NCBI GenBank assembly: GCA_964427615.1
Contig: CAYRUR010000002.1
Coordinates: 17,847 to 81,846, forward strand
Reading direction: 5' to 3'
DNA length: 64,000 bases
Origin: an uncultured Gammaproteobacteria bacterium
GTDB taxonomy: Bacteria; Patescibacteriota; Microgenomatia; Levybacterales; GWA1-39-11
This document shows, piece after piece, positions 17,903-56,045 of the stretch. The translations under genes and the position numbers were made by a program. Under the pieces are notes generated by a model. That model was not told where the DNA came from, searched no databases, and worked only from the letters and a program-made list of their open reading frames with translations. Positions within the stretch are counted from its first letter, which is position 1; each line of letters opens with the position of its first letter.

Positions 17903-18300
17903 AAAATGAGTATTAAGTATTAAGAAGTAAGTATAGAAAGAAATTCAAAACGCAAAAGTAAAAAGTCAAAAGTTTTGAAATAAACTTCCACCTTATAAAA
18001 TTTGTCATTCCAGACTTGATCTGGAATCCATGTCTTCATTCTCTGGATCCTGGATCAAGTCCAGGATGACATATTTATGTTTGTTTTAATAACTGTTCTA
18101 AACCCCAACCGCTAAACACTTGTTTTCTATGCTCTATTTTCTGTTTACTGCTTTCTGACTTCTTTTCATTCTTAAATCTTGAATCATAAATCCTAAATCT
18201 TATTTTCTGTTCTCTGTTTACTGTTTACTGTTTTCTTTTCCTAATTCTTAATTCATAATTCTTAATTCGTTTCTCTAATCCCTAATCTCTAAACACTCCT
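17903..18300. repeat. composite intergenic word-repeat element, long copy (gagtattaagtatta / aaaacgcaaaag / ttctgtt-ctctgtttactg / cttaaatc / cttaattcataattc / ctctaatccctaatc modules), including the hairpin element 18004-18070
   Basis: Homologous module by module to 40908-41068, 44921-45100 and 49385-49635. Confidence 0.6.
18004..18070. repeat. MITE-like double-hairpin element GTCATTCCAGA...TCCAGGATGAC
   Basis: Imperfect terminal inverted repeats (gtcattccaga / tccaggatgac). Two perfect 7-bp stems: TTCCAGA-cttga-TCTGGAA and TCCTGGA-tcaag-TCCAGGA. Confidence 0.55.
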
Positions 18301-18313
18301 TTACTTCCCACCG

Positions 18314-19111
18314 TCATATTCCCCACTTAGAAAACGCGATGAGGATAAAAACTGCCAAAAACCCTACCCACAAATATTCCCAAAGAATACCTTTGAAAAG
18401 ATGTTTTTCTACCCATGCATGAGACAAACCCAAGTAAGTGTAAAAAATACCAATCAAAAAAATAGAATAAATAGATGCATCTACTGGCCAAACAATAAGC
18501 GCAAATGATAACTGAGTTATCATCAGAGAAATAAGTAAAGAAAGTATGGCAATTTCTTTCATCCGTTCCCTTTCCAAAGCATATGCCCACAAAGACTGAA
18601 ATGTGAGTAAAAATACAATTACAGAAAGCACTAGTGGGGGTACAAACGGCGCAAAACGCAGTGAAAATACGATATTTATCAAGAAAAATAAAACAAGCAA
18701 CGTAATAACAAAAGACACAATACGTGCGCTTCGCAACAAATTAATAGTTCTTATAGCAGAGATTGCAAAGATATTCTGTGCTAAAAATAACGAGTAAAGC
18801 CCAAATGCATACACAAAAGTACTTAATAGCATCGTAACTACTCGTGAAGGAATAAGCAGATAGAAAAATGAAAAAGAAAGAGAATACAAAAATGGCAGAA
18901 TGTAAATAGGAATCGCAAACACTGCCTGCGTATCTTTTTTCACAATCAAAAAAAAGAACCCTACCGTCAACAAGGAAAGAACAAGTCCAAGTGCTAAGTG
19001 AATAGCACCACTAAAAAACCCTGAGGTGAAAAAAAATGCTGAAAGAAAAAAGACACAGGCAACAAATTTTTGTCTTTTATTAAAATTAACAGGTATTTTT
19101 GGAACACGCAT
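18314..19111 (-). CDS. polytopic integral membrane protein (unknown function)
   Basis: 265 aa, about 8 hydrophobic helices. ATG start confirmed. Confidence 0.55.
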   Translation of the reverse strand: MRVPKIPVNFNKRQKFVACVFFLSAFFFTSGFFSGAIHLALGLVLSLLTVGFFFLIVKKDTQAVFAIPIYILPFLYSLSFSFFYLLIPSRVVTMLLSTFVYAFGLYSLFLAQNIFAISAIRTINLLRSARIVSFVITLLVLFFLINIVFSLRFAPFVPPLVLSVIVFLLTFQSLWAYALERERMKEIAILSLLISLMITQLSFALIVWPVDASIYSIFLIGIFYTYLGLSHAWVEKHLFKGILWEYLWVGFLAVFILIAFSKWGI

Positions 19112-19331
19112 ACAATTACAAACTCATTATGGGTCAGATTGTTTAAAAAACAGATACTAACAATCACTAATTATAGTCTATCACTTCCCTCATTTCCACT
19201 TTCACTGCTTTGGTTTAGGATTAGATTATTGTTTATTGATTATTAGCGGGTTAACGAGTTGGAAGACGAAGAGTTTGTAAACCTCGATCAAATGTAGTGC
19301 TTAGAATTTATACTATGACTATAGGATATTT

Positions 19332-20069
19332 CTATTGCTGCACGAAATCTGCATTACTGTAGACACTTTGTACATCATCATGCTCTTCTAGTTTTTCTAA
19401 AAGATTCATCACTCTATTCTGCACTTGCGTATCAGAAACCTCAATAGTTGTATTTGGCTTGTATACAATTTCCGCATTTTCTATTACCAAACCTGCACTT
19501 TCAATTCCTTTCTTAACTGCCTGAAAATCAGTTACAGAAGTACTGATAACCACACTTTCACCCTCTTCTTCTACATCCTCCGCTCCTAACTCCAATGCTA
19601 TATTTAGTATTTCATCCATTGACTTCCCATTTTTTTGTACCACCAGTTCTCCCATGTGTGAAAAAAGATAAGCAACAGATCCGGGATTACCAAATGATCC
19701 TCCATTTTTATCAAATATATTTTTTACTTCAGCTACCGTTCTTTGGTTTTTATCTGTTACAGCTTCGACAATAATTGCTACTCCTCCAGGAGCAAATCCT
19801 TCATACACAACTTCCTCAAGTACTATTCCATCTCCTGCGCCTGCTCCTTTGGCAATTGCTCTGTCAATATTATCTTTGGGCATATTAGCAGCCTTTGCCT
19901 TATCAACTGCAAGTCTTAATTTAAAATTTGACTCAGGGTCAGTAATACCTCCACCCTGCTTCACTGCAATAGTGATTGCATTGGATAACTTACTAAAAGC
20001 CTGACCCCTTTTTTGGTCAGCTGCACCCTTTTGTCTTTTAATTGTTGACCACTTACTGTGTCCACTCAT
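19332..20069 (-). CDS. yebC: YebC/PmpR family DNA-binding transcriptional regulator
   Basis: MSGHSKWSTIKRQKGAADQKRG... is the canonical YebC N-terminus. 245 aa. Confidence 0.9.
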   Translation of the reverse strand: MSGHSKWSTIKRQKGAADQKRGQAFSKLSNAITIAVKQGGGITDPESNFKLRLAVDKAKAANMPKDNIDRAIAKGAGAGDGIVLEEVVYEGFAPGGVAIIVEAVTDKNQRTVAEVKNIFDKNGGSFGNPGSVAYLFSHMGELVVQKNGKSMDEILNIALELGAEDVEEEGESVVISTSVTDFQAVKKGIESAGLVIENAEIVYKPNTTIEVSDTQVQNRVMNLLEKLEEHDDVQSVYSNADFVQQ

Positions 20070-20138
20070 AGCCTCTCATTATACAGCAGTTACCTTGACT
20101 TTTTCAATAAAACTGGTTAAAATAGCATATCTCACACA

Positions 20139-20765
20139 ATGGCACCTCTCAAAGATTTAGCTATAAAACACGCATTACAAAACAACTGGCAAGAAGCAAT
20201 AGAAGCAAATCAACAGTTGCTTGAAGAAAACCCTTCTGATATTGACACCTTAAATAGATTAGCCTTTGCTTACTTAAAATCAAACCACATTGAAGAAGCA
20301 AAAGAATGCTACAGTAAAGTACTGCAACTGGATGCAACTAACCCTATTGCTCTCAAAAACTTAAAAAAAATCGACACAATTGCTCTAAATGGTAACCCAG
20401 TTCATTCAAATGGAAAAGCTGCTCTTTCTTTGGAAAATTTATTTATAGAAGAAGCAGGAAAAACAAAAGTTATTGAGTTAAAAAACATTACTGATAAAAA
20501 GACACTCTCCAATATTCAACCAGGAGATAGCGTAAAACTGGTTATCAAAAGATCTAAAATATTTGTCCAAACCCCAGACGCTACTTATATTGGAATGCTT
20601 CCTGATCAGATGGGAGCTCGACTTATTTCACTTATCCAAGGAGGAAATGAATATCAAGCATATATAAAAGGACTTAGTGAAAAATCAGTAACTATCTTTG
20701 TGAAGGAAATAAAACGATCAAAAAAGTTTAAAGACTTTGCCTCTTTTAGCACGGTAAATGTCTAA
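20139..20765 (+). CDS. tetratricopeptide-repeat protein
   Basis: TPR-like helices (LNRLAFAYLKSNHIEEAKECYSKVLQLDATNPIALKNL). Confidence 0.55.
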   Translation: MAPLKDLAIKHALQNNWQEAIEANQQLLEENPSDIDTLNRLAFAYLKSNHIEEAKECYSKVLQLDATNPIALKNLKKIDTIALNGNPVHSNGKAALSLENLFIEEAGKTKVIELKNITDKKTLSNIQPGDSVKLVIKRSKIFVQTPDATYIGMLPDQMGARLISLIQGGNEYQAYIKGLSEKSVTIFVKEIKRSKKFKDFASFSTVNV

Positions 20766-20769
20766 ATTT

Positions 20770-20925
20770 ACTTCTTTTTTGATACACGAAATAGTATTCT
20801 CTCTTTGTGCAACTCTTTTTTCGCCTCTTCTACTTGCCTACCAATACCCTTCTCTTTCCGTAAAGATACAAGACTCCAAAGGAAAGAAATAAGAAGAAGA
20901 GTCAAAGTAACAATCCAAAAATCCA
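20770..20925 (-). CDS. small TM protein (~51 aa), not in the ORF track
   Basis: Minus-strand ORF MDFWIVTLTLLLISFLWSLVSLRKEKGIGRQVEEAKKELHKERILFRVSKKK read by hand. Coordinates approximate. Confidence 0.2.
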
Positions 20926-20957
20926 TTGCTTGTATTATACCATAAATTTACTACAGG

Positions 20958-21785
20958 CTATTTAAGGAGCTCTTCATGTAAATAAACACTTACATCTGCT
21001 GCTGCAGGTGAAGGACTATAAACAACCGGAATATTTAAAATACGTCCTAGACTGCGGATAGTTTCATTCTCAGGAATCCTTGCAACAATCTGCGATTTAT
21101 CCTTTTTTTCACCGTTTTTGACAAATATGATATTATAACCACCATTTTTAAGCATATGAGAGACATCACCTGCAAATCCATTTACAGAAGTCAGATTTAC
21201 TACCTCCACACTTGTCCCTTCATTAATGATCTCAATACTACGGAATAACTCATTTACTGCATCAATGACGGTTTGATTTCCACTTTGTGTACGAGAGAGC
21301 TCCTGATATACGACTGTTTTTTCTTCAACTTCATCAATAGAACGAGCTAAAAAGAACAATTTGGCAAGATCAAAATTGTTTAAATGTACTCTTGCGTTAT
21401 CAGAAGTAAATAATAGACCAAAGAAAGAACTATAAGAAAAAAAGTCTTTTTTAATATCAGTTGTACTATTAGCTTTTTGCAGTTTGATACTTGCATCCAA
21501 AGGTATTCCTAACGCAATACTTTTTTGTAACAAAGACTTACCATCAAAATCGCCAGGAATGCTCTCAACCTTCAAAACTGCAATTTTTTTACGTTCTTTA
21601 TCTACTTTTATAACAGTAGTTTTATCCGCCTCTACAAGAAAAGTATAGAAAGATGAAGTAAAACTTCTATTTTGAAAAGAAAAAAAAGCCTTACCGCTTA
21701 AAGAAATCAATAAAGCAATGCTTAACAGAAAAAGAAACACCTTTATATATCTCAAATTTGCATGAGTGTTTTTTTTATGAACCAT
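20958..21785 (-). CDS. membrane-anchored protein, possible LytR_C-like C-terminal domain
   Basis: 275 aa. N-terminal TM. C-terminal 'VEVVNLTSVNGFAGDVSHMLKNGGYNII' resembles the LytR C-terminal domain. Weak support. Confidence 0.4.
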   Translation of the reverse strand: MVHKKNTHANLRYIKVFLFLLSIALLISLSGKAFFSFQNRSFTSSFYTFLVEADKTTVIKVDKERKKIAVLKVESIPGDFDGKSLLQKSIALGIPLDASIKLQKANSTTDIKKDFFSYSSFFGLLFTSDNARVHLNNFDLAKLFFLARSIDEVEEKTVVYQELSRTQSGNQTVIDAVNELFRSIEIINEGTSVEVVNLTSVNGFAGDVSHMLKNGGYNIIFVKNGEKKDKSQIVARIPENETIRSLGRILNIPVVYSPSPAAADVSVYLHEELLK

Positions 21786-21805
21786 AGTGTATACAAAATA
21801 AAATT

Positions 21806-22022
21806 AAATTCTAAGCACGAAATTCTAAATTTTAAAAGTTATCGTCATCGCGAAGAAAAGCTTGTTCCCGTGGCGATCTCTTTTTGCAAGGGGATTGCTT
21901 CGTCCGTTTTACTTACTCGCAATGACGGATACCATTCTCTTCTTGCTTTATAAACTTTACAAACTTTCTACTACCTCCAACTCGTTAACTCTTTAACTAG
22001 CAACCCATTAACTAACTTGTCC
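21806..22022. repeat. composite intergenic repeat (aattctaaa words + GTCAT hairpin element + aactcgttaactctttaactagcaaccc module)
   Basis: Same architecture as 49385-49635 and 33200-33383. Confidence 0.55.
21842..21928. repeat. MITE-like element TCGTCATCGCGAAG...GGGGATTGCTTCG...CTCGCAATGACG (87 nt)
   Basis: Terminal inverted repeats cgtcatcgcgaag / ctcgcaatgacg. Second copy at 49426-49504 shares all four conserved blocks. Confidence 0.55.
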
Positions 22023-23696
22023 CTAGCTAAACGCTGCTGCCCCTTTTTGCTTCAAAAGCCGGATTTTATCAAGATTATCTTCTTCTATAATATGAGCCAC
22101 GTGCACACCTCCTGAAAAATGAGGAATAACTACATAATCAGCTCCATGTTTGTACAGCATTTTTTCATCATCTCCATTTTGAGCAAACACAATAACTTTT
22201 GCTTTTTTATTCATCTTATGAATGGAATCAAGCAAAATAAGATTATCCTTTACATCAGGAACTGTCGAGATAATCACTTTAGCAGTATGCAAATGTGCTT
22301 TTTCTTGAATCTCATGATCCGCAATATCACCAAATAATGATAATCCATTTTTCTCTTGTATTTTTTTCACGATATCCGGATTGAAATCAACTACTACAAA
22401 GGTGTGACTACTCTGCTCTAGTGCATGTAAAATACTCATCCCAGTTCTATTGGCGCCAATTAACACTACATGATCTTTCAATTCACCCAATTCCATATGG
22501 TGCTCTACTCCCTTCTTTCTTTCCATAAAGGAAAGATAGCGATGCATTTTTTTATAAATATCATTTCCATGTAAAATAAAGTAAGTAGAGAAAACAAAAG
22601 TAACAACGCCAACAAAAGTAATAGTCGAAACAACCTCTGCAGGAATATGTCCTAAATTATGTCCCATGAAAGCAAGAATAAAACTAAACTCAGAAATTTG
22701 ACCCAAAATTAGTCCGGTAAAAAAGGACGTTCTCTTACGATACCCCATCAGTCCTAAAATAGAAATGACTACAAGAGGGCCTCCTATAAGCACAAAAAAT
22801 GACAGAATAGTTGCTGGAATGACAATAGAAAGCATATCAGCAAAAACCATGTTCATTCCCAGTGATACAAAAAACAACGTGATGAAAAAGTCTCGCAGTG
22901 GTCTCACACGTGCACTGATTTGGAAATGCTCTGTGGAATTAGCTAGTGCAAGACCCGCTAGAAACCCTCCGATTTCAATTGAAAATCCAATCAATGGGGA
23001 ACTCACCAACGCCGCCACACCAAAAGCCCATGCAATGCTAAATAGAAATAACAGTTCTGAAGAACTTGAAACATAACTAATAATTTTAGGAAGTACATAC
23101 TTACTCAAATAAATAACAATTCCAAAAAGTGCAGCAACTTTTGCCAACACAAATGCAAAATCAAAAATAGTTAACCCAGATGAATTCTCAAATCCGGAAA
23201 GAATAACCAAAGTGAGAATAGCAACAAAATCCTGAATCAGTAAAATTCCAATTGCAATTTTTCCGTATAAGCTGTTGAGATCTCGTTTATCAGATAATAA
23301 TTTAACAATAATAATTGTACTGGAAAATGTTAATCCAATGGCAAGATATACTGAAGAAACGAGAGAAAAACCCAGAGCTAGAGAAAGCAAAAAACCTAAG
23401 AGTGCGGTAATAACTACTTGTCCTACTCCAGCAACGACCGCAACTTTACCTACTGATTTCAATTCCTGGAATCGCAACTCCAATCCTAAAGTAAATAACA
23501 AAAGTGTAATACCAAATTCTGATAACACCTGTAATACTTCCTGCCCATCACGAATTTGAAAAAGAGCTAAAGGTCCTACAATAATACCAGTGAGAAGGTA
23601 GGCAAGAATTGGTGGCTGTTTTAAAAAACGAAAGATAAGAGAAAAAACAACTGCAATACAAATTACACTGGTAATTTCAAAAAAAATAAATTCCAT
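22023..23696 (-). CDS. Kef-type monovalent cation:proton antiporter (CPA2) with C-terminal RCK/TrkA-N domain
   Basis: 557 aa. 12-13 TM helices followed by a soluble Rossmann-like domain (VVLIGANRTGMSILHAL). Confidence 0.8.
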   Translation of the reverse strand: MEFIFFEITSVICIAVVFSLIFRFLKQPPILAYLLTGIIVGPLALFQIRDGQEVLQVLSEFGITLLLFTLGLELRFQELKSVGKVAVVAGVGQVVITALLGFLLSLALGFSLVSSVYLAIGLTFSSTIIIVKLLSDKRDLNSLYGKIAIGILLIQDFVAILTLVILSGFENSSGLTIFDFAFVLAKVAALFGIVIYLSKYVLPKIISYVSSSSELLFLFSIAWAFGVAALVSSPLIGFSIEIGGFLAGLALANSTEHFQISARVRPLRDFFITLFFVSLGMNMVFADMLSIVIPATILSFFVLIGGPLVVISILGLMGYRKRTSFFTGLILGQISEFSFILAFMGHNLGHIPAEVVSTITFVGVVTFVFSTYFILHGNDIYKKMHRYLSFMERKKGVEHHMELGELKDHVVLIGANRTGMSILHALEQSSHTFVVVDFNPDIVKKIQEKNGLSLFGDIADHEIQEKAHLHTAKVIISTVPDVKDNLILLDSIHKMNKKAKVIVFAQNGDDEKMLYKHGADYVVIPHFSGGVHVAHIIEEDNLDKIRLLKQKGAAAFS

Positions 23697-23728
23697 TGTT
23701 TTAGTCTAGCATTTCACCGAGATACTAT

Positions 23729-26552: not shown

Positions 26553-26563
26553 ACATGAGGCTT

Positions 26564-33199: not shown

Positions 33200-33383
33200 G
33201 TGGAACGTTATTTCTCGACAAGCTCGAAATATAAAGATTTTATTTTTCGACCAAGCGAAGTGCGTGGAGAAAATTTATTATTTCAAAACTGAGGAAAACT
33301 AAACCCTAAGCACTAACCCCTAACCGCTCCTTCTTCTTTCCAACTCGTTAACTCTTTAACTCGCAACCCGTTAATTTATATAT
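33200..33383. repeat. composite intergenic repeat (cgaagtgcgt hairpin module + ctaagcactaacccctaacc words + aactcgttaactctttaactcgcaacccgttaa module)
   Basis: Module matches 21971-22022, 45060-45100 and, reverse-complemented, 19240-19262. Confidence 0.55.
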
Positions 33384-36545: not shown

Positions 36546-36571
36546 ATTATAGTCTCCTTAAAATAATGTCA

Positions 36572-36603
36572 TTCTGGCAAACGAAGTGCGTCCAGAATCT
36601 TTT
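36572..36603. terminator. rho-independent terminator-like hairpin TTCTGG-caaacgaagtgcgt-CCAGAA followed by TCTTTT, between convergent genes
   Basis: 6-bp stem plus T-run, 26 nt after the 36545 stop. Also part of the GTCAT/cgaagtgcgt repeat family. Confidence 0.45.
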
Positions 36604-36650
36604 ACTAATCTTTAACTACAGAAAAGCTTATTCTCTTCTAACCTAAGACT

Positions 36651-38048: not shown

Positions 38049-38208
38049 ATGTGCTCCATTGTACCAAAATAAGGAGTAAGAAGTAAGTAGTAAGTATATT
38101 ACTCTAAACTTAAATGCTAAAATCAGAATCTTAATTCATCATCCTGCTATTACCAATTCCTTACACACTTATCACAAAAAGCATATAAATGAGTCTTATA
38201 GTCAAAAT

Positions 38209-38508
38209 ATGGTTTTAGCATTACTCATCATTCTTATTATCCTCTGGTTTTTTGGATTTATACCTTTTGCTCTTTTCCAAACACCTCTTTTTACCCTTAA
38301 TGGTAACACTATAACTCTCTACGAGTTACTTATATTTGGAGTCGTATTATGGCTTATTGGACTTCTCCCCAGTCCTTTACGAGAGATAGGAGCTGTTCTT
38401 TTACTTTTGTGGGTTCTATCTGTTCTAGGATTTTTAGCTATTGGAGGACTTTCTCAAATCCTTATTATTGCTATTATTTTAGGAGTAATTGTTTCCCTCT
38501 TTTCGTAG
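38209..38508 (+). CDS. small integral membrane protein
   Basis: 99 aa, three hydrophobic helices. Confidence 0.5.
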   Translation: MVLALLIILIILWFFGFIPFALFQTPLFTLNGNTITLYELLIFGVVLWLIGLLPSPLREIGAVLLLLWVLSVLGFLAIGGLSQILIIAIILGVIVSLFS

Positions 38509-40555: not shown

Positions 40556-40556
40556 A

Positions 40557-40829: not shown

Positions 40830-40907
40830 ATATAAATGCAAATTAGTTTCTCCTTATGATACAAAACAACACCTAAAAATACAAGAGCTAATTTGCAATG
40901 ACCAAAA

Positions 40908-41068
40908 GTGAGTATTAAGTATTACTGAAAACTTAAATCGCAAAACGAAAAGCGCAAAACTAAAACGTAAATCTAAAAATTATTCTAGCAACTATAAATT
41001 CTTAATTCCTGATTCATAATTCTTAATTCATTTCTCTAACCCGTTAACTAACTCTAATAACTAATCCC
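40908..41068. repeat. composite intergenic word-repeat element in the rpsF / htrA divergent region
   Basis: gagtattaagtatta...caaaacgaaaagcgcaaaac...cttaattcctgattcataattcttaattc...ctctaacccgttaactaactc. Confidence 0.55.
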
Positions 41069-41118
41069 TTCCTTATTGATTGACAGTGAAGCCAGAGAGG
41101 AATACAATAAAACTACAG

Positions 41119-43625: not shown

Positions 43626-44918
43626 ATGCACCAACCGGTTATTGAGTCGTTGTATCCTTTAACCTTTAGAAAAAAAGATGCTTCATTATTAGGAGAACAT
43701 ATACGACTGCGCCATAGTGTAGAACTGGTAGGAGTAAAACGAGTAGGTATCAGCAATTTCTTACGCTTTTTCCTGTATCATCCACAAATAGTAAAAATAT
43801 ACATAGGACAAAAAAATCATCTCTTTATTCCCGTAGACCTTAACGACTTAATAGAAAGAGAAATCGTACCTTTCTGGACACTTACGTTTAAAAGAATGGT
43901 TGATGTGGTAGAAAAATCTACTCTAGACCCTACTATAAAACAAGCTATTTCTTCCCGATTTTTAGCAAGTATTCAAGCCCAAGATCATTTTTTAACTATG
44001 GAAAACATCCGAAGCTCTTTGATAGAGATGGTAAACGCGGGATTTTTCCCTACGCTGTTTTTACTACGATTTGACAGAATACAAGAAGCAGTTACCCCGG
44101 AGTTTTTTGATAATTTACAAGGACTACTTGATGCCACAGGACAAAATATGTCATATGTATTTACCAGTTTTCGCCCACTTGACCAAATTGCTCCTGTTGT
44201 TTTTCCTAGAAAATCACTTTCAGGCTTTTCTCACATTATGTATCTCACGTCTGCTTCAAAAAAAGATATGCAAATTATTTTAGAAACATTACAAAAACGA
44301 TATAGTCTTAATCTTTCTCCTAAAACAGAAACCACAATGCTTGATCTTGCCGGAGGACACGTTCAGTATTTGCATTTTTTCCTAGTTGTTTTACATGAAT
44401 TGGGAAAAGATATTAAAAGTACTGAAGAACTTATATCCATGTTAGAACAAGATGAACGCATTACTTTACAATCAGAAGAAATTTGGGAAAGTCTGTATAA
44501 AGAAGAACAAGCAGTACTCACAAAAGTCCTGAACAAGAAAGCAATCACCCAAAAGGAAAAAGAAGAAGCCATGTATTTATGGAACACAGGCATTCTTACG
44601 AGTGATAACGAATTTTCCAGCCCACTTTTCAGATCTTATGTACAAAAAAGAACTGACTTTGTTGAGGAGGAGACTATTGAATTTTCTAAAAAAGAATATC
44701 TACTTTTCAATCTTTTGAAAGAACATATTAATTCTGTGTGTGATAGAGACACGATCATCGCCAGAGTGTGGCAGGAATATGAAGAAACAGATGTCTCAGA
44801 TTGGACGATTGATAGACTCATAGCACGCCTGAGAAATAAACTAAAACAACAAAAAAGCCCCTACTCTATTATCACGATTAGAACAAGAGGATATAAATTG
44901 GTGAGATCTGCGGAATGA
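43626..44918 (+). CDS. transcriptional regulator with C-terminal OmpR/PhoB-type winged helix and N-terminal ATPase-like domain
   Basis: C-terminal 'ICDRDTIIARVWQ...TIDRLIARLRNKL...IRTRGYKL' is a trans_reg_C wHTH. No receiver domain. N-terminal ~300 aa is P-loop-like but degenerate. Confidence 0.55.
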   Translation: MHQPVIESLYPLTFRKKDASLLGEHIRLRHSVELVGVKRVGISNFLRFFLYHPQIVKIYIGQKNHLFIPVDLNDLIEREIVPFWTLTFKRMVDVVEKSTLDPTIKQAISSRFLASIQAQDHFLTMENIRSSLIEMVNAGFFPTLFLLRFDRIQEAVTPEFFDNLQGLLDATGQNMSYVFTSFRPLDQIAPVVFPRKSLSGFSHIMYLTSASKKDMQIILETLQKRYSLNLSPKTETTMLDLAGGHVQYLHFFLVVLHELGKDIKSTEELISMLEQDERITLQSEEIWESLYKEEQAVLTKVLNKKAITQKEKEEAMYLWNTGILTSDNEFSSPLFRSYVQKRTDFVEEETIEFSKKEYLLFNLLKEHINSVCDRDTIIARVWQEYEETDVSDWTIDRLIARLRNKLKQQKSPYSIITIRTRGYKLVRSAE

Positions 44919-44920
44919 TA

Positions 44921-45100
44921 GTAAGAATTATGAATTAAGAAGCAAGAGTTAAGTGTTTACTTAAAATGCTAAGCACTAAATCCTAAATTCTAAATTTTTG
45001 CTTTCTGTTCTCTGCTTTCCATACTTAATACTTACTACTTAATACTTTATACTAATCTCAAACTCGTTAACTCTTCAACTCGCAACCCGTTAACCAATTT
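44921..45100. repeat. composite intergenic word-repeat element
   Basis: taagaattatgaattaagaagcaag...ctaaatcctaaattctaaat...ttctgttctctgctttcc...aactcgttaactcttcaactcgcaacccgttaacc. Confidence 0.55.
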
Positions 45101-45145
45101 CCCTCCTCTTGCATCTTCTCAGTAAATCTTGCATACTAAAACCAT

Positions 45146-47343: not shown

Positions 47344-47366
47344 TTTTTACCTTTCCTTCCTACATA

Positions 47367-47395
47367 TTGTAATAAGAAGCATTTTCGAGTATAAT
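47367..47395 (+). promoter_or_regulatory. sigma70-like promoter TTGTAA-17-TATAAT placing the TSS at or next to the rpmE ATG (leaderless)
   Basis: The -10 element ends 8 nt before the ATG at 47404. No SD. Confidence 0.45.
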
Positions 47396-47403
47396 TGTAC
47401 CAT

Positions 47404-47694: not shown

Positions 47695-47732
47695 CCGTAT
47701 CTCCCTATACATCACCTAAAGAGGGGCTTTCT

Positions 47733-48659: not shown

Positions 48660-49315
48660 CGCACCTCTACTTTTACTGCTCCCACATTCTGACAACTAGT
48701 AAGCTGTTTCCATTCACCATCATATTTTGCTTTTTCATCAAATAATTCTTTCAAAGGATTGCCACTTTTTTTCTGATACATATATAAACTGCCATCCCAC
48801 ATACACATTACATCTCCAGGCCGAAATTGTCCATATACTCCTTGTAATTGATAAGAAGCAGCAACCACATATCCTGATTCAGAGGGCATATAGTAAAAAT
48901 CTTTAGTAGATGATCCTTTATATACTGCTCTTATAGCCCCTGTATACTCTCCTTTTCCTTCAATAATGTCAGCAACTGACAAAGACGTTATCGGATATTC
49001 TTTCGTGTAATAAACGGTGTACCAATTAGAATTAGGTACCTCCAAATGTACCGAAAGACCTTGACCTTTCTGGATAACAGAAGATTGTAACGTGACATTA
49101 ACAGTAGGAGGATTTGAGAAATCAACAACTTCCTGAGATGCTCGAGAGACTTGTTGATTTTGGTTACTGACTAAAAATAACGTAACAGGCAAAGACAACA
49201 GCATCAGCAGTGTTGTAGCATAAAAAAATGTCGTACCCGCACTCCCTTTCTGATTTTTAAAATAACTACTTCTATCTTCTAAAATAGATGTACAATTTTT
49301 GATAAAGCCAATCAT
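48656..49315 (-). CDS. membrane-anchored hypothetical protein
   Basis: 219 aa. N-terminal TM ([22 protein letters not shown]). Confidence 0.5.
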
Positions 49316-49384
49316 TATAAGGACGTCTCTGCTTTAATCAAATCACTTCCACTTTAAAAAGTCAAGAAAGATGAGATCCTTGAA

Positions 49385-49635
49385 TAGTAAATTCTAAACT
49401 CTAAATTCGAAATTCTAAAGAATATTGTCATCGCGAAGGAACTTTAATTCCTGTGACGATCTCTTTATTATCAGGGGATTGCTTCGCTTACACTCGCAAT
49501 GACGTTTTTGTTTACTGCCCTCTGCTTTCTGTTCTCTGCTTACTGTCTTCTTATTCCTGAATCTTAAATCATAAATCATGAATCATATTCATAATTCGTA
49601 ATTCTTACTTCTTAATTCTAATTCTTAAACGCTCT
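49385..49635. repeat. composite intergenic word-repeat element containing the hairpin element 49426-49504
   Basis: attctaaactctaaattcgaaattctaaag + GTCAT element + tttactgccctctgctttctgttctctgcttactg + cttaaatcataaatcatgaatc + cataattcgtaattcttacttcttaattctaattc. Confidence 0.6.
49426..49504. repeat. MITE-like element TGTCATCGCGAAG...GGGGATTGCTTCG...CTCGCAATGACG (second copy)
   Basis: Conserved blocks shared with 21842-21928 (terminal inverted repeats, gtgacgatctcttt, aggggattgcttcg). Confidence 0.55.
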
Positions 49636-49638
49636 ACG

Positions 49639-50565
49639 CTATTCACTAAGTGTTTCCTTAATAACTTCAATAATTTGAGTAAGAGAAAGTTTGGTAGGCA
49701 CAGAGGTAGGATTTTTAGAACTACCGTTCAGAAGCATTTTCTTTGATACGTGCAAAAACCAAGAAGCATCAGGATCCATTTTTCTTATTGCTTTGTACGC
49801 AGGTGTCAGGTCAATATCTGCTACTTTTCCCGCCTTGTCCTCATATTTTTTTCGAGGTTCAGGACGTGCTTTAATACGCACAAACCCCAAACGAGGGTCT
49901 TTGCGTACTACCAAAACATACCCTTTTAGTTGTGCCAATTTGAGAAGTGCATCCTGTACTGATTCTACTCCCACTGCCTTTCCATAAGGCGTATCAAAGG
50001 GAATTGCTTTCTCCTCTAACTCCTGTTCTGCAAAAACTCTTCCCTCAAAAACAAGGAGTACTTTGTCCAAGGCAGACATCACAAATTCTACACACCCCAA
50101 ATCGTCTTGTGGATTCTCCATTTTATATCCATCTATAATACTCTCAAATTGGAAATCATAGCGATAAGAAAATGAATCAGGAAAGTATACATCCTGAAAA
50201 TGGTCAGTATCTATCACCAAATCAACAATACGCTGTAATGCTTTATACCGTGTCTCCTGTTCCTTAAAGTTTTCATGTTGTTCTGCAACATAATCAAGTG
50301 TTCGTTTGGCAGCACACACTTCTCTATCACTGGTCTGATGATGATCCAAAGGTCCCATACCGGTATCTACCGTAATAATTTTTTTATCTCCTATTTCTTG
50401 AATTACCTGGTCTATCCCTTCCTCAGTTCCTAACATCCTTCCCCCTGCAGGGACAAATTCAATAATTGCATCTTGCCAATCTGGAAGAAATCGCTTTATG
50501 AGCCAAACAGAAGTAATTGCATCTAAATCAGGAGCACTGTGAGCAACGATGATTTTCATAAGCAT
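49639..50565 (-). CDS. DHH-family phosphoesterase (NrnA-like nanoRNase / pAp phosphatase)
   Basis: AHSAPDLDAITS and DHHQ motifs. DHH plus DHHA1-like architecture. Confidence 0.75.
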   Translation of the reverse strand: MLMKIIVAHSAPDLDAITSVWLIKRFLPDWQDAIIEFVPAGGRMLGTEEGIDQVIQEIGDKKIITVDTGMGPLDHHQTSDREVCAAKRTLDYVAEQHENFKEQETRYKALQRIVDLVIDTDHFQDVYFPDSFSYRYDFQFESIIDGYKMENPQDDLGCVEFVMSALDKVLLVFEGRVFAEQELEEKAIPFDTPYGKAVGVESVQDALLKLAQLKGYVLVVRKDPRLGFVRIKARPEPRKKYEDKAGKVADIDLTPAYKAIRKMDPDASWFLHVSKKMLLNGSSKNPTSVPTKLSLTQIIEVIKETLSE

Positions 50566-50624
50566 TAGTATACCATACTTTCCTCACCTCACCTTATCCT
50601 TGACTTTCTAAAATAATTTAACCT

Positions 50625-51044: not shown

Positions 51045-51068
51045 GGTATTTTCAGCTCAAACACGCAC

Positions 51069-52511
51069 CTAATAGGCTTGTGCAAAAAGCCATCTGTGTT
51101 TTGCTTCTTTCCTGCAATACACGCAAGCTCCTTTTTCCTCTTTTGCATTGAGAGGTAAACACCGAGTAGTTGCCTTCGTCTCTTCCTTTATCTTTTTTTC
51201 ACACACTGGGTCTTCACACCAGAATGCTAGTAAAAATCCTCTGGTTGTACTCATCACTTCTTTAAATTCTTCATATGAATTAATAACTCGAGTATTTTCC
51301 TCTGTAAACTTTTTTGACTTTTCAAATAAGTTTCTTTGGATTTTTCCAAGTGTATCAGCAACAAAAGTGGCAAGGTTTTCTAATGCGACGCTCTCTTTTT
51401 CTGATGTGTCGCGACGGTACACTGTTACTGATTTGTTTTCCATCTCCCTTGCACCCAACTCTATGCGTATTGGTACTCCTTTTAAATCCCATTCGTTAAA
51501 TTTGTACCCTGGAGAGTGTCTATCATCGTTATCTATCAACACTGCATCTTTCTCTAATCCAAGGCTTTCCTTAACTTTATGTGCATATGAAGCAATTTCC
51601 TCACCCTGATCTCCTTTTGCAATTGGGACAATAACAACTTTATACTCTGCCATATGGGGCGGAATTACTAACCCTTTATCATCACCATGCACCATAATAA
51701 GTGCTCCTAAAGATCTGGTTGAAAGTCCCCAGGAAGTTTGCCAACCGTACTGAGTATCTCCTTTTTCATCTTGAAATGTTACCCCAAAAGCTTTAGCAAA
51801 ATTCTGACCCAAGTCATGTGAAGTACAGCCTTGTAAAGCTTTTCCATCTGGCATCAGCATTTCATACGTATAAGTCACATCAGCACCTGCAAATTTTTCA
51901 GACTCAGATTTTCTTCCCGCAATACCATAAATTGCATATTCTTTCTGATACAAATCAATATATGCCTGTAGTGCCTCATCCACCGTTTTTTGTGCATCCG
52001 CGTGTGTTGCATGCACTGTATGTCCTTCCTGCCACAAAAACTCAGTATTACGCAAAAATGGATAAGGACGCAGCTCCCATCTGACTACATTTGCCCATTG
52101 ATTTATTTTCATAGGCAAATCCCTGTAAGAAGAAATCCAGCGTGCAAATGCATCATTGATAATGGTTTCAGAAGTTGGTCTTACCACAAGCGGCTCTGTT
52201 AACTCTTCTCCTCCACCCACTGTTACCACTGCTAGCTCAGGAGAAAACCCTTCTACATGATTTTTTTCTTTTGCTAAAAAACTTTCAGGAATAAAAAGAG
52301 GAAAGTACACATTGGAAGCGCCAATATCATGCTTTATCTTCTCATTAAGATACTGTTGTGCTTTCTCCCACAAAGCGTACCCATAAGGACGGAAAATAAT
52401 AGTTCCTCGTACTGGCCCATAATCTGCCAGCTCTGCTTTTAATACAACATCAATATACCACTCTGAAATGTTGTCTGATTTTTTACTAATGGCTTTTACA
52501 TCTTTTCCCAT
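51069..52511 (-). CDS. proS: proline--tRNA ligase (archaeal/eukaryotic-type ProRS)
   Basis: 480 aa. Class II core with a C-terminal Zn-binding domain and no INS editing domain. Confidence 0.85.
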   Translation of the reverse strand: MGKDVKAISKKSDNISEWYIDVVLKAELADYGPVRGTIIFRPYGYALWEKAQQYLNEKIKHDIGASNVYFPLFIPESFLAKEKNHVEGFSPELAVVTVGGGEELTEPLVVRPTSETIINDAFARWISSYRDLPMKINQWANVVRWELRPYPFLRNTEFLWQEGHTVHATHADAQKTVDEALQAYIDLYQKEYAIYGIAGRKSESEKFAGADVTYTYEMLMPDGKALQGCTSHDLGQNFAKAFGVTFQDEKGDTQYGWQTSWGLSTRSLGALIMVHGDDKGLVIPPHMAEYKVVIVPIAKGDQGEEIASYAHKVKESLGLEKDAVLIDNDDRHSPGYKFNEWDLKGVPIRIELGAREMENKSVTVYRRDTSEKESVALENLATFVADTLGKIQRNLFEKSKKFTEENTRVINSYEEFKEVMSTTRGFLLAFWCEDPVCEKKIKEETKATTRCLPLNAKEEKGACVYCRKEAKHRWLFAQAY

Positions 52512-52562
52512 ATGGCAAAATTATAACCAAAGACTACCTGACAAGCAACAAACAAAGAGGTG

Positions 52563-53480
52563 TTAGATACTTTCAGCATTCCATTCTCGAATGGCTGATG
52601 CAATTCTAGGAGCAAGCGTTATCACTTTCAGCTTTTCAAATTGTTTTTCCTTTGGTACTGCAATTGCATCAGTAACAAATACTGCATCAACAGCTGATGC
52701 TTGTAATATCTTTGAAGCATCAGCAGCCAAAAGAGGATGGGTTGCCATGACATATACCTTTTCAGCACCTTGTACTCGCAATGCGTCTACTGCCTGTACT
52801 ACCGTCTTCCCAGTAGAAATAATATCATCAACAATAAAACAAATTGGTCTAACCGTACCTTTTACTTCTGCAACTTGTATCTCTCCTGTCTCATAGTCTC
52901 TGTCTTTATTCACAATAACTTGTTCTACTCCACCCAACTCCCCAGATAACAAATCAAGTCTTCTAATCCCACCCATATCAGGAGACACAATGGATACTTT
53001 TTCCAAATCAGGCTCTATTTCTTTTATTTTGGCAGCAAAAAGAGGAACTGCGGTATCTGCTTTTACCGGAATAGAGAAAAGCTCTGGAATTTTAATAGAA
53101 TGAGGATCTACTATCCAAATCCTTGAAAGCCCTACTCCTTCAATAGTCTTGATAATTACCTCCAAAGGCACTGCCTCGCCAGAACGAAAGATATGATCAG
53201 CTCGCATATACCCCATGTAAGGTACAATTCCCGTAACAGAACGTGCGCCTTTATTGATAAAAGCATTGATAAGAAAAGCAAATTCTAAAATATTTTCCTC
53301 AACAGGATCAGCAAGTGATTTTATAAGGTAAATATCCTCACCTAATACTTCTTCCAAAACTCTGACTCGTTTTTCTTTATCAGGAAAAATATGAATTTCA
53401 GGATAAAACAGGGGAACACTTAGTGCACGAGCCACCTTTTCTGATAACTCTTTATGGTGTAAATCGCCATATAACTTCAT
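52563..53480 (-). CDS. prs: ribose-phosphate pyrophosphokinase
   Basis: PRPP-binding motif (FIVDDIISTGKTV). 305 aa. Confidence 0.85.
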   Translation of the reverse strand: MKLYGDLHHKELSEKVARALSVPLFYPEIHIFPDKEKRVRVLEEVLGEDIYLIKSLADPVEENILEFAFLINAFINKGARSVTGIVPYMGYMRADHIFRSGEAVPLEVIIKTIEGVGLSRIWIVDPHSIKIPELFSIPVKADTAVPLFAAKIKEIEPDLEKVSIVSPDMGGIRRLDLLSGELGGVEQVIVNKDRDYETGEIQVAEVKGTVRPICFIVDDIISTGKTVVQAVDALRVQGAEKVYVMATHPLLAADASKILQASAVDAVFVTDAIAVPKEKQFEKLKVITLAPRIASAIREWNAESI

Positions 53481-53559
53481 AGGCTACAAGCGTCTAGCGC
53501 ATACATCCTCAAGCGTTTTAATAAAAGGATTACTAGACGCTTTTCCAACTAAAAAACGC

Positions 53560-53841
53560 TTATTTTCCTCCGAGAAGTCCTTGTAGTCCTCCTCCCATTT
53601 CCTGCATCTTTTGTGCAGATTTTTTCTGAGCTTTTTCAATTGCGTCATTAACTGCATCTCTGATGTCCATAGCCTCTTCATCATTGATTTTAAGACTCTT
53701 TACCTTCATGTCTCCGCTCATCACAATCTTTACTCTTCCCTGCTCGCTGGTTACTTCAATTTTAGCAAGCTCTTTCTGGACTTTCATTGCCTCATCTCGC
53801 AATTTTTTGAGATCGCTAACGCCTTTTAATGGATTAAACAT
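53560..53841 (-). CDS. ybaB: YbaB/EbfC nucleoid-associated protein
   Basis: 93 aa. Characteristic YbaB sequence, downstream of dnaX. Confidence 0.85.
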   Translation of the reverse strand: MFNPLKGVSDLKKLRDEAMKVQKELAKIEVTSEQGRVKIVMSGDMKVKSLKINDEEAMDIRDAVNDAIEKAQKKSAQKMQEMGGGLQGLLGGK

Positions 53842-54029
53842 ATAAAAATCACCTCCTTACCTTGAATAACCCCATTATAACAACATTTTGTATTATTTGT
53901 CGAAGGGTGAGATGAGAGATGGTGAACGGGTTGGAAAAAAAGTTTATAAAGTAATTAGGAAAAAATAAACAGATATTTAGAATTTAACTTGCCAATAAAA
54001 TCTTAAAACTTTTAATTTTTGAGTTGTAC

Positions 54030-54185
54030 TTCGATACACTCAGCATCCTGAGCTTGTCGAATGGATACTTTTGCATTTTGCCTTTTGACTCCGATGGAAT
54101 CGAGAGTCATCCTCGATATTATCGGGATTGAGTTTTAACTTTCTTTCCATACTTGATTCTTACTTCTTAATACTTAATACTAACT
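54030..54185. repeat. composite intergenic repeat (small hairpins + reverse-oriented aagtattaagtattaagaagtaag module)
   Basis: ctcagcatcctgag and cgagagtcatcctcg hairpins. Ends 'ccatacttgattcttacttcttaatacttaatac'. Confidence 0.45.
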
Positions 54186-55595
54186 CCCTACTTTCACCTG
54201 CAATGTAACACTTTTGCCAATAATTGCTGAGGCGCATTTCTCAATAACTTTACGTGCCTTTTCTTCTGAAAGTTTGTCCCCATGAAATTTATAGGCTGTA
54301 GAAACAGTCAAAGCACTATCTCCCACTTCCACCAGACTACATCCTCGCAAAATTCCAGCAATAGAATGATTTTCTTGTTTTACACTATCTATGAGCTTTC
54401 CAAAAAGCTCTGCATTTCCTACTGAAACGGTCACCTGCTGTTTTTTAGGAGAAGCAGAAATAGTTGCTTGTGTTTTTTGCTCTGGCACTTCTTGTTTTAC
54501 TTCTTGCTTGATAGATACCTCTTCTTCTCCAAAACTCCATTTTATAATTGCTAGCTCAAGTGGCAGTTGAGGAATAACAGAAAACTTTATATCTTTATAT
54601 GCTTGATTAAATAATGTCAGCAGCTGCTCAAGTGATGAGGCTGAAAATGAAAGATCAGATGCCTTTTTTTCAAGACCTGCTTTTGCCATTAATAGCTCCC
54701 GCAAGCTTTCCACTACTCTTTCATTTACAATTTTAAAATCCACTCCCATACCTGAAAGCTCCTGGATAATTTCCAGTCCTTTCTTCCCATCTTTGCTGGC
54801 CAGAGCAATAATAAGCTCTTTTACCTGCGTATCAATACTCTCTGCTTTGTAAAGGGATTCAACAGTCTCAAGTGTTATCTTTTTACTCTCACCTGCTGCA
54901 AGTGCAAGTTCTTCCAAAACTTTCATCCCATCTCGAAATGAACCTTCTGCTAACACATATATTTTTTCAAGCACTGCATCCTCTATTTGCAGACCCTCTC
55001 CTTTTGCTGCTCGCATCACAGAACGGATAATTTCTTCTTTGGTAGGCTGTTCAAATGCAATGTGAAAGGTTCTGGAAATAATAGTTGGCAACACTTTCCA
55101 AACTTCTGTAGTACAAAGAATAAATACAACGTGGCTAGGTGGTTCCTCAAGTGTCTTGAGGAGTGCATTAAATGCCTCATTCGTAAGCATGTGGACCTCA
55201 TCAATGATATATACTTTTTTAGATAAAGATGAAGGAGCAAATTTTACCCGTTCTCGCAGTCCGCGTATTTCATCCACTCCTCTATTTGAAGCCGCATCAA
55301 TTTCTAATACATCAACATTTGATCCATTGGTAATAGAAATACATGCCTGACAAGTATTACAAGGTTCTATTGCCCCATTGTCTACTTGTTTTTTTCCACC
55401 TTCTGACTTTTTTTCGCAATTGATTGCTTTTGCTAAAATGCGTGCTGCAGATGTTTTTCCAAGTCCTCTGGAACCAGTAAAAAGAAACGCATGAGGAATT
55501 TCACCGCTTTTAAGAATTGCTAAAAGACGCTCTCGTACAGTAGTAAGATCTAAATCAGAGATTGTTTGAGATCGGTATTTTCTATAGAAAACCAT
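54180..55595 (-). CDS. dnaX: DNA polymerase III subunit gamma/tau
   Basis: GSRGLGKTSAARILAK Walker A. Zn module CNTCQAC. SRC motif. Confidence 0.9.
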   Translation of the reverse strand: MVFYRKYRSQTISDLDLTTVRERLLAILKSGEIPHAFLFTGSRGLGKTSAARILAKAINCEKKSEGGKKQVDNGAIEPCNTCQACISITNGSNVDVLEIDAASNRGVDEIRGLRERVKFAPSSLSKKVYIIDEVHMLTNEAFNALLKTLEEPPSHVVFILCTTEVWKVLPTIISRTFHIAFEQPTKEEIIRSVMRAAKGEGLQIEDAVLEKIYVLAEGSFRDGMKVLEELALAAGESKKITLETVESLYKAESIDTQVKELIIALASKDGKKGLEIIQELSGMGVDFKIVNERVVESLRELLMAKAGLEKKASDLSFSASSLEQLLTLFNQAYKDIKFSVIPQLPLELAIIKWSFGEEEVSIKQEVKQEVPEQKTQATISASPKKQQVTVSVGNAELFGKLIDSVKQENHSIAGILRGCSLVEVGDSALTVSTAYKFHGDKLSEEKARKVIEKCASAIIGKSVTLQVKVGS

Positions 55596-55642
55596 AAAAA
55601 TAAAATACTAAATCCTAATACCTAAATTCTAAATTATTTTAA

Positions 55643-56011
55643 TTAAGAATCAAGTTTTTTAATTATTGTTGCAAAAATTCTCATAAGTTCATTAGCTTCC
55701 TGAATCAGTCTTTCTTTTTCTGTTTTTAAGTCATCAGAAACAACTAACAATTTCAGCCAATATATAGTCTCTTTTGCTTCTTTTTTACATATCCTCACCC
55801 TGTGAATAAGATCTTTCCTACTTATTGCGTCGTTAGCCTCTATATAATTTGCTCCTATTGAACCTGAAGAACGCATAAGTTGCTGCATATCACTTACCAG
55901 CAATGAAGAAGTTTTAATTTTTCTAAGAAAGGATCTTATGGATTGAGCAAACAAAAAAGTTCTATCTTCTAAATCATAGTTATTATCAGTCTTTTTTTGC
56001 ATTAATTCCAA
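55643..56011 (-). CDS. four-helix-bundle protein (23S rRNA intervening-sequence protein family), free-standing
   Basis: 122 aa. Matches the TIGR02436-like four-helix-bundle family (…GANYIEAND…KETIYWLKLL). Confidence 0.6.
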   Translation of the reverse strand: MELMQKKTDNNYDLEDRTFLFAQSIRSFLRKIKTSSLLVSDMQQLMRSSGSIGANYIEANDAISRKDLIHRVRICKKEAKETIYWLKLLVVSDDLKTEKERLIQEANELMRIFATIIKKLDS

Positions 56012-56045
56012 CTTTAGAATTTAGTGTTTAGAATTTAGAATTTTC

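Follow-up and report, generated by a model that had tools for sequence, protein, structure and literature searches.

Tandem arrays of short, degenerate words with a strict 7-nt period, together with one family of 8-nt units, were found in no fewer than 12 of the intergenic spacers that lie from 17.9 to 56 kb in a 64-kb stretch of metagenomic contig CAYRUR010000002.1 (hereafter the window, with coordinates counted from its first base). Judged from its sequence, the host is a candidate-phyla-radiation (CPR) bacterium, Levybacteria-like in character. On balance, the patches formed by these arrays are probably non-coding, satellite-like heptamer simple-sequence repeats (SSRs), comparable to the short tandemly repeated repetitive (STRR) sequences or long SSRs (LSSRs) of other bacteria, which were made by slippage and dispersed by duplication into permissive spacers. 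This reading builds on direct observations, namely the strict period, words that are related to one another, homologous patches, some gaps of exactly 7 nt, the absence of patches from the spacers of relatives and the lack of any positional rule. Counts refer to the window; beyond it, the source genome was reached as short Logan contigs only.

A first reading of the letters alone (the sequence-only reading) had listed quasi-tandem words of 6-9 bp in a series of spacers, sorted into modules a to g, a lettering retained here. The words were present where it had placed them and the quasi-tandem arrangement was borne out, whereas the unit proved to be 7 nt, or 8 nt for the AACTCGTT family. The strict heptamer period, the kinship of modules a, c, e and f, the palindromes embedded among the arrays, which resemble miniature transposable elements with inverted repeats (MITEs), and a prophage-like boundary at about 17.9 kb had not been recognized. 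A lag-match scan (threshold of at least 15 of 21 matches) returned 16 period-7 segments (790 bases), compared to about one in first-order Markov shuffles. Other periods from 3 to 13 remained near chance level, and the raised signal at period 14 is a harmonic, since 14 = 2 x 7. Independently, the program TRF detected period-7, 8 and 14 arrays with 2-9 copies each in the same spacers. Words were also counted in the window with up to three mismatches and compared with dinucleotide shuffles. Module f was matched seven times (0 in shuffles), module c eight times (0.04), and modules a and g (the latter as a 33-mer) three times each (0 for both). The named words thus occur 3-8 times where 0-0.04 copies are expected, which upholds the claim that they are no compositional coincidence. 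Module d, taken as an ungapped 20-mer, gave a single match at three mismatches; an identical 19-mer was found by BLAST at 44999 and 49523.

Most of the words belong to one family. Eleven of the 19 TRF consensus units lie within one mismatch of a master heptamer, AAGAATT/AATTCTT, in any rotation and on either strand, and the mean pairwise distance between units was 2.15, compared to 2.54 ± 0.06 for letter-shuffled units of matched composition. Given this close relationship, modules a (AAGTATT), c (TAGAATT), e (AAGATTT) and f (AAGAATT/ATGAATT) are variants of a single heptamer, and the first half of module g is a more distant relative. Modules b and d (AAAAGTN, CAGAAAA) form a second, A-rich family, and the second half of module g represents the octamer family, which is based on GTTAAC (AACTCGTT family, GTTAACNN type). 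The idea that this HpaI site is avoided, or offered as a decoy, was dropped (16 sites observed, 12-21 expected). The arrays are strongly strand-asymmetric and use nearly a three-letter alphabet: the segment 40985-41068 contains 3 G and 21 C, and 44918-44959 contains 1 C and 9 G. In four composite patches (17903-18300, 38064-38140, 40909-41068, and 44918-45093), a purine-rich half precedes a pyrimidine-rich half, and this holds on both strands.

Sixteen of 17 arrays lie within the roughly 11% of non-coding DNA of the chromosomal part of the window, and by our own count about 8 of the 11 spacers of at least 200 bp between 17.9 and 64 kb bear arrays. Their density is 0.35 period-7 arrays per kb in this chromosomal part and zero in the prophage-like part that precedes it; none were found in 1-17.9 kb or in 56.1-64 kb of the window. 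Logan assemblies made independently from two further sequencing runs reproduce two of the patches base for base, which excludes an assembly artefact. As the sequence-only reading had stated, patches are found in either orientation, whether they follow a stop codon, precede a start codon or occupy a divergent spacer.

Patches at different loci are homologous to each other over considerable lengths. Module c with the adjoining hairpin (21805-21927 and 49388-49504) matches at 77% over 124 bp in BLAST and at 83% in a MAFFT alignment, the d-e block (18120-18204 and 49508-49589) at 78% over 85 bp, and the f-g block (18238-18281 and 40999-41042) at 89% over 44 bp; a further colinear match among the patch pairs extends over 57 bp at 84%. 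The arrangement a-GGAAAG-b occurs in three places, and 17901-17981 has homologues at 40904-40973 and, in reverse complement, at 54128-54179. In some cases the gap between two such copies measures exactly 7 nt. Modules follow each other in recurrent combinations (a-b; c-hairpin-d; d-e-f-g; g adjoining a gene end), but these form a mosaic rather than one fixed order. The "same ordered set" and the "genome-wide" extent given in the sequence-only reading were both overstated.

The patches are lineage-specific insertions, as the same spacers are short in syntenic relatives. The spacer from dnaB to tRNA-Ala measures 232 bp in the window, but 4 bp and 54 bp in two relatives (loci L002 and L003; L numbers denote loci retrieved from other genomes). 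Similarly, the LytR_C/Na-H exchanger spacer spans 237 bp in the window and 6 bp in a relative, and the convergent spacer at cysS 105 bp and 7 bp. The patches are flanked by the upstream stop codon on one side and by retained promoter-proximal DNA on the other. The density of such arrays varies within the clade: six syntenic loci, fetched via DnaB homologues regardless of repeats, carried 0.09-0.59 period-7 arrays per kb, and other Levybacteria as well as many other Patescibacteria hold the same kind of arrays, mostly with words of their own.

Replication slippage was one of three origins proposed by the sequence-only reading, and it is the one for which evidence was found: besides the 7-nt gaps and the close word variants, several indels between two Falkowbacteria species (90% identity) measure 7, 14, 21 or 28 nt. 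The same reading is favored by a composite of arrays dispersed in the related genome SMAG_U6018, by the empty site of a palindromic element, by the conservation level of the arrays in the Falkowbacteria pair, and by the lack of arrays in the adjoining prophage-like DNA (all given below). We infer slippage as the generator, a duplicative route of dispersal, and neutrality. Under this scheme, the arrays of the AAGAATT family, the A-rich family and the octamer family would grow, shrink and diversify by slipped-strand mispairing, one unit per step, and variant units would be amplified locally. Blocks of adjacent arrays would be copied to other spacers, either through recombination or gene conversion among the patches or through some form of mobilization, and small palindromic MITE-like elements would insert among them. 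The patches would settle in the permissive stretch from one stop codon to the next promoter, where their persistence would need no sequence-specific function.

Changes in unit number might also serve as a switch. If the arrays were contingency loci for phase variation, with neighboring genes turned on or off, promoter spacing would change with each step of 7 nt. The neighbors, however, are essential housekeeping genes (dnaB, cysS, hisS, proS, and those of ribosomal proteins and DNA polymerase III tau/gamma), many arrays lie downstream of stop codons, and three assemblies showed no variation in array length. We regard phase variation as highly improbable.

Several points weigh against slippage followed by neutral dispersal. 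Useless DNA should be lost from streamlined genomes of about 1 Mb, yet arrays make up about 3% of the 38 kb. Slippage alone does not explain the unit length of 7, nor does it account for the movement of composite blocks between loci, and no transposase or other mobilizing gene was found among the genes of the window. The three-letter strand asymmetry is likewise unexplained, and the purine-before-pyrimidine order of the four composite patches hints at an organized element. Furthermore, the three assemblies without length variation are silent on polymorphism, and the conservation test described below rests on a pair from another genus, Falkowbacteria. A bolder interpretation, which we consider possible but unlikely, takes the heptamer mosaics for organized elements found throughout Patescibacteria, either composite mobile elements with arrays of 7-nt sites at their ends, or chromosomal binding arrays for a rapidly co-evolving, heptad-reading protein (ribbon-helix-helix or OB-fold) that would structure or segregate the nucleoid of these minimal cells. 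The genome-specific master words, the strand asymmetry and the purine-then-pyrimidine order would fit such elements and are left unexplained by plain slippage.

In its simpler form, which the sequence-only reading had raised as sites for a nucleoid or partition protein, the protein-based explanation has the arrays recognized by a DNA-binding protein, one heptad to each dimer, with a nucleoid-organizing, centromere-like or global operator role. Units of 7 bp or 8 bp that adjoin one another, direct or inverted, resemble the operators of ribbon-helix-helix proteins. Runs of 7-bp heptads in either arrangement are the targets of the omega repressor/centromere protein of plasmid pSM19035, and tandem 8-bp metboxes those of MetJ. 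A single master heptamer is common to most arrays of the source genome, and the arrays are independent of gene orientation, as would suit a role at the DNA level rather than in transcription. The omega and MetJ arrays, however, are few conserved plasmid or regulon sites with a known binder, whereas the present arrays are many, degenerate and chromosomal, at least three unrelated word families coexist, and no candidate protein was identified. In addition, conservation of the master word does not extend even to other Levybacteria. Only 11-15% of the units in other genomes were as close to AAGAATT, which equals the null expectation, so that the family is specific to the source genome; this argues against a conserved binding motif, and is compatible with a co-evolving protein. 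The same spacers of relatives lack arrays, and in the Falkowbacteria pair the arrays were no better conserved (87% identity) than other intergenic DNA (90%) or coding DNA (91%). A binding array is therefore an unlikely explanation.

Palindromic elements are embedded in several patches, and two of them, h2 (21844-21926) and h3 (49427-49503, 77 bp), are MITE-like. They are homologous, differ by a gap of exactly 7 nt, carry terminal inverted repeats (GTCATCGCGA...TCGCAATGAC), and are present or absent at otherwise homologous sites: h3 fills the c-d junction of its patch, while the c-d junction at about 44996 contains no such element and resembles an empty site. A target-site duplication was not visible at either h2 or h3. 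A third palindrome, h1 (TGTCATTCCAGAC...CCAGGATGACA; 18003-18071), has inverted arms and a predicted DNA fold of -17.4 kcal/mol (z = -4.9). It gave a weak match to the Rfam family WsnRNA46 (E = 8e-4, 30.9 bits), which is below the gathering cut-off of 65.3, so that membership cannot be claimed. The resemblance to these dispersed palindromes of the Wolbachia/Rickettsia type concerns the embedded hairpins only, which are 30-85 bp long and end in GTCAT...ATGAC. Palindromes with these ends look like a very promiscuous family of small elements. As side observations, the half-element GGGGATTGCTTCG-N(3-25)-CTCGCAATGAC was found in 41 viral contigs of IMG/VR, several times over in some of them, and palindromes like GTCATTCC...GGATGAC occur in the loci L021 and L048.

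Whether each whole patch is itself a true non-autonomous MITE-like element, with array a at one end and array f at the other as imperfect terminal inverted repeats and a transposase acting in trans, was weighed in the same way. Arrays a and f are inverted partners in four of five cases (17909/18238, 38070/38128, 40909/40997, and 44922/45021), with about 6 of 7 positions complementary per unit, and the first two elements have both ends in common. Further support comes from the Patescibacteria genome SMAG_U6018, where two contigs carry copies (96% identity) of a dispersed 225-bp composite that ends in arrays and is sharply bounded, and from the empty and filled sites of h2/h3. The patches are, however, not of the uniform length of a MITE: they range from 70 to 360 bp, their internal modules vary, and the module order is shuffled. 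Many arrays are solitary, no target-site duplications are visible at the patch boundaries, and the window lacks a transposase. Altogether, such an origin of whole patches appears very doubtful.

A role in transcription or at the RNA level would make the patches a form of punctuation, as promoters or UP-like elements, as terminators or insulators, or as unstructured leaders and trailers to which proteins of the S1, cold-shock-domain or CsrA type would bind. Arrays of the type (TTTAGAA)n, alone or with adjacent sequence, produce the sigma-70-like site TTTAGA-N17-TAGAAT at 21808-21836 and 49391-49419 (both on the minus strand) and at 56013-56041 (plus strand), because 23 = 3 x 7 + 2; a variant, TTGATT-N16-TAGAAT, is located at 55626-55653 (minus strand). 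Three of these sites, within c arrays, lie just upstream of a gene and aim at its start, and one is antisense. The locus L003 shows short inverted word arrays between the genes for S6, SSB and S18, the three-letter composition predicts unstructured RNA, and translational regulation by heptamer repeats has been proposed for the TAACTGA repeats of Beggiatoaceae (MacGregor, 2015; PMC4679880).

The counts argue otherwise. Consensus promoters and terminators are as frequent in the window as in shuffles, and by coordinates, the promoter-like c arrays face the downstream gene correctly only about half the time (right in 3 cases and wrong in 2-3). In 32 further CPR-like loci, arrays were present in 53% of the tandem, 35% of the divergent and 54% of the convergent spacers, and the sense strand was purine-rich in 42 cases and pyrimidine-rich in 34; no preference for spacer type or sense strand was apparent among 128 intergenic arrays. 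The earlier statement that the patches are not simply promoters or terminators was thus confirmed, and this candidate was rejected. Folding was not robust either: z-scores were -3.0 and -3.2 for the two strands of the h1-bearing patch (17895-18313) and -2.8 for 44915-45145, but +1.1 for 40900-41079. Long-range pairing of a with f was predicted on both strands of 17895-18313, mostly due to the embedded palindrome, and structured RNA as a general property was rejected. Similarly, 83 hairpins formed by inverted array pairs gave no sign of selection on RNA, as G-T and A-C mismatches were about equally frequent and transversion mismatches commoner. Above the gathering threshold, Rfam detected only two tRNAs in the whole window, and permissive scans of 16600-18320 and 49300-49650 returned only matches below it. 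With unrelated housekeeping genes on their flanks, the patches are quite unlikely to act as punctuation.

Intrinsic curvature, another origin suggested by the sequence-only reading, found no support. The power of AA/TT at 10.5 bp was at or below that of shuffles in all eight patches analyzed, usually below, while the 7-bp power was raised in most, and a period of 7 bp cannot add bends in phase. Curvature by phased A-tracts was accordingly rejected.

Among known repeats, the arrays are best classed as a known but unexplained kind, the tandem, intergenic heptamer repeat at many loci, in a new host group. As summarized in PMC4679880, long SSRs (Mrazek et al., 2007) consist of tandem units of 1-11 nt in runs longer than chance allows for the composition, and in the 5-11-nt class, units that are not a multiple of three are found mainly outside coding regions. 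The 16 period-7 segments, compared to about one in shuffles, and the intergenic position of 16 of the 17 arrays agree with both properties. The same paper cites heptamers as the commonest long SSRs and polymerase slippage as an idea for their origin.

The repeats STRR1-3 of heterocystous cyanobacteria, heptanucleotide tandem repeats reportedly described by Mazel and colleagues in 1990, are an obvious comparison. Their units are CCCCAGT, TTGGTCA, and CAACAGT. The present arrays share with such repeats the 7-nt unit, short imperfect arrays of commonly about four units at many intergenic loci, the direct and inverted arrangement, a length and sequence that differ extensively from one relative to the next, and the lack of an established function. 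They differ in their AT-rich words, in the phylum and the tiny streamlined genome of the host, which is no heterocystous cyanobacterium, and in that variants are joined into mosaics which recur as blocks. Related repeats with the unit GGGGAYT in Nostoc and GGGAATC in Xanthomonas likewise form inverted pairs and vary between relatives (Rehm et al., 2015; PMC4692102). In the window, no tandem copies of the STRR1-3 units, TAACTGA, GGGAATC or GGGGATT were found.

Direct repeats of TAACTGA occur in marine Beggiatoaceae, in some Cyanobacteria (Microcystis) and in Bacteroidetes, where some genomes hold mixed "assemblages of heptamer repeats" and close relatives have shorter, repeat-free spacers; in the BOGUAY genome, one dominant word is located just upstream of start codons in sense orientation (MacGregor, 2015; PMC4679880). 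Intergenic heptamer arrays, mixed assemblages, short repeat-free spacers in relatives and a patchy distribution are common to both systems. The window, in contrast, contains many variants without any rule of position or orientation, sense or close to start codons, and its 12 copies of TAACTGA are all single.

Dispersed intergenic patches built from a few short modules, which vary in how they are combined, oriented and multiplied, are also a feature of the BIMEs/REP of E. coli and of pneumococcal BOX elements, which are intergenic mosaics of palindromic or unique modules of 30-60 bp. In the present patches the modules are 7-nt microsatellite arrays instead. BIMEs/REP are associated with the REP-associated tyrosine transposase (RAYT) and with binding of IHF, gyrase or Pol I. 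The minisatellite-containing MITE of Porphyromonas gingivalis, as far as its outline in PMC4596501 goes, is similar in combining inverted ends and internal tandem repeats in a small, non-coding, dispersed element; compared with this outline, the present patches lack defined terminal inverted repeats with a target-site duplication, and their unit of 7 nt is no minisatellite. CRISPR arrays, whose direct repeats of 23-50 bp alternate with unique spacers of about equal length, do not fit, since the 7-8-nt units are contiguous without spacers, and Rfam gave no more than a chance-level match here (E = 7).

The distribution in other genomes was explored with the octamer word AACTCGTTAACTCTTNAAC. A single scan of 185,579 species genomes, with the source genome not among the matches, gave 46 loci, mostly from Patescibacteria or look-alike metagenome-assembled genomes (MAGs; Falkowbacteria, Roizmanbacteria, Jacksonbacteria, Peribacteria, and others). 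A few were found in other phyla, including Scytonema, where the word adjoins a (CATTGGG)n array. Many of these 8-kb loci hold 5-15 more period-7 or period-8 arrays, often as inverted pairs. The number of 14-mers in common with other genomes was only about twice that of a column-permuted null (p ~0.01), an excess due to two genomes. A universal vocabulary of words across phyla was therefore rejected, the master heptamer being genome-specific as well. As an exception, the reversed a module within 44964-45093 matches arrays of SMAG_U6018 at 94% over 35 bp, with the unit variants in the same order. In an incomplete literature search, which yields absence of evidence only, no paper on such repeats in Patescibacteria was found.

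Heptamer repeats have remained unexplained since 1990 in cyanobacteria, Xanthomonas, Beggiatoaceae and some Bacteroidetes, and their range now extends to the ultra-small, streamlined genomes of the CPR. There, arrays swell spacers of otherwise 4-50 bp to 200-400 bp, which offers a simple genomic background to ask what generates the 7-nt unit, whether the arrays are parasitic, neutral or used, and which gene content accompanies them. On the practical side, the patches can seed spurious open reading frames (ORFs) and probably fragment short-read assemblies: the retrieved Logan contigs of the organism were only 2.6-6.8 kb long, and one relative has a gap of N inside an array. This is L094 of the same clade, where an (ACTGACC/ACTGACA)n array in the spacer right after dnaB (11336-11510) is interrupted by a run of N, indicating that the assembly broke within it.

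Most of the regions listed by the sequence-only reading consist of word arrays, whereas 36565-36640, 33200-33290 and 54030-54140 are mainly palindromic hairpins. The first patch opens with arrays a (AAGTATT type) and b (AAAAGTN type) at 17901-17981, which are purine-rich and C-poor on the plus strand. It continues beyond h1 with the contiguous arrays d-e-d-f-g at 18121-18300, where only 11 G face 39 C among 180 bases of the plus strand; this part lies directly downstream of the stop codon of a minus-strand gene (18314-19111). A reversed patch of g- and octamer-type words (GGTTTAGGATTAG...GGGTTAACGAGTTGGAAG), identified by BLAST at 19212-19262, had been missing from that list. Array c (CTAAATT type; 21806-21841) adjoins the start of a minus-strand gene (20958-21785) and precedes h2. 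It is followed at 21979-22011 by the octamer array g/H (AACTCGTT AACTCTTT AACTAGCA ACCCATTA), which has two mismatches to the 33-mer (0 expected) and ends 11 nt from the stop codon of another minus-strand gene (22023-23696).

The spacer from dnaB to tRNA-Ala is filled by array g (CTAACCC type) and then octamer array H at 33294-33374, detected by TRF, period scan and word match. It is preceded by the hairpin-containing segment h5 (33211-33269; z = -1.8, a weak value), which has the motif CGAAGTGCGT in common with h4. The latter is a small palindromic hairpin (GTCATTCTGG...CCAGAATC; z = -2.6) in a convergent spacer (36568-36599), followed by vestigial word repeats. Upstream of cysS (minus strand), array a (AAGTAGT/AAGAAGT) leads into short b-like and f-like words (38064-38140). 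The divergent spacer of the S6 operon and htrA contains arrays a and b, purine-rich on the plus strand (40909-40973), and then arrays f and g, found by TRF, period scan and BLAST, with few G among the 84 bases of the plus strand at 40985-41068.

A reversed array f (GAATTATGAATTAAG) at 44918-44959, detected by period scan, BLAST and word match, is followed at 44964-45093 by arrays c, d, reversed a, and H. Array c (TAAATTC type) at 49378-49427, apparent in TRF, period scan and word match, is separated by h3 from arrays d-e-f (49513-49630; TRF, period scan and BLAST), which end 8 nt before the stop codon of a minus-strand gene (49639-50565). At 54030-54126 (h6, z = -3.8), a reversed b array (TTTTGCATTTTGCCTTTTGAC) lies in between three small palindromic hairpins. 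Here, a reversed array a (ATACTTA type; 54146-54195, by TRF and period scan) overlaps with the gene for DNA polymerase III tau/gamma at its stop codon. The last two patches, both detected by TRF, period scan and word match, are array c at 55595-55638, filling a whole spacer of 47 bp, and reversed array c (TTTAGAA type) at 56004-56048, filling one of 34 bp.

Apart from an identical copy on a 164-kb NCBI contig, relatives of the DnaB protein showed at most 79% identity, and among them are proteins assigned by their sources to Candidatus Levybacteria, Parcubacteria and other Patescibacteria; the gene order is common to other contigs with the closest DnaB homologues. The repeat-bearing part encodes housekeeping functions (dnaB, cysS, hisS, proS, prfA-like, S6-SSB-S18, L31, DNA polymerase III tau/gamma, EF-P, and yebC). 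The preceding block, from 1 to about 16.7 kb (1-16655), looks phage-derived, as it encodes proteins resembling an SU10 adaptor and a tail protein, an HNH endonuclease, and a protein of 1903 aa that contains a PBECR3 nuclease domain. The GC skew is positive in this block and turns negative at about 18 kb. No heptamer arrays were found in the block despite spacers of 256, 506, and 1245 bp, and the octamer word is absent from IMG/VR; a spread of the arrays by phages was thus rejected.

The boundary of the prophage-like block is located at about 16.7-17.9 kb. The adjoining 1.2 kb or so (16656-17900) contain neither an ORF of at least 100 aa nor an Rfam match above threshold. A perfect 10-bp direct repeat, two copies of TAGGTTCAAA at 17884-17903, lies exactly between this ORF-poor end and the first patch and may be the remnant of an attachment site. 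Elsewhere in the window, a hydrophobic 99-aa ORF (38209-38508, plus strand) is located between ctpB and cysS. The relative L003 has a 103-aa gene at the matching position, on the same strand as its neighbors.

In L003, the S6-SSB and SSB-S18 spacers (3902-3980 and 4506-4577) each carry an inverted pair of AACTCTT/AAGAGTT-type words, so that small hairpins arise from words of this kind. The Gammaproteobacteria label of several of the matched MAGs may be wrong. The yebC locus of one so labelled (L024, "uncultured Gammaproteobacteria") is about 81% identical in DNA to that of a Patescibacteria-labelled locus (L010), and its YebC-region proteins match those of the window about as well as the proteins of L010 and L050, likewise labelled Patescibacteria, do. 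Finally, an inverted octamer pair, GTTAACGAGTTAACGTGTTAACGGGTT and AACTCGTTAACTCTTTAACCCGTTAAC separated by a short AT-rich loop, is nearly invariant in intergenic spacers of seven loci (L009, L011, L016, L022, L098, L099, and L101). The same mismatches are kept in every copy, across several MAGs and metagenome contigs, and the window holds only solitary copies of the right arm.

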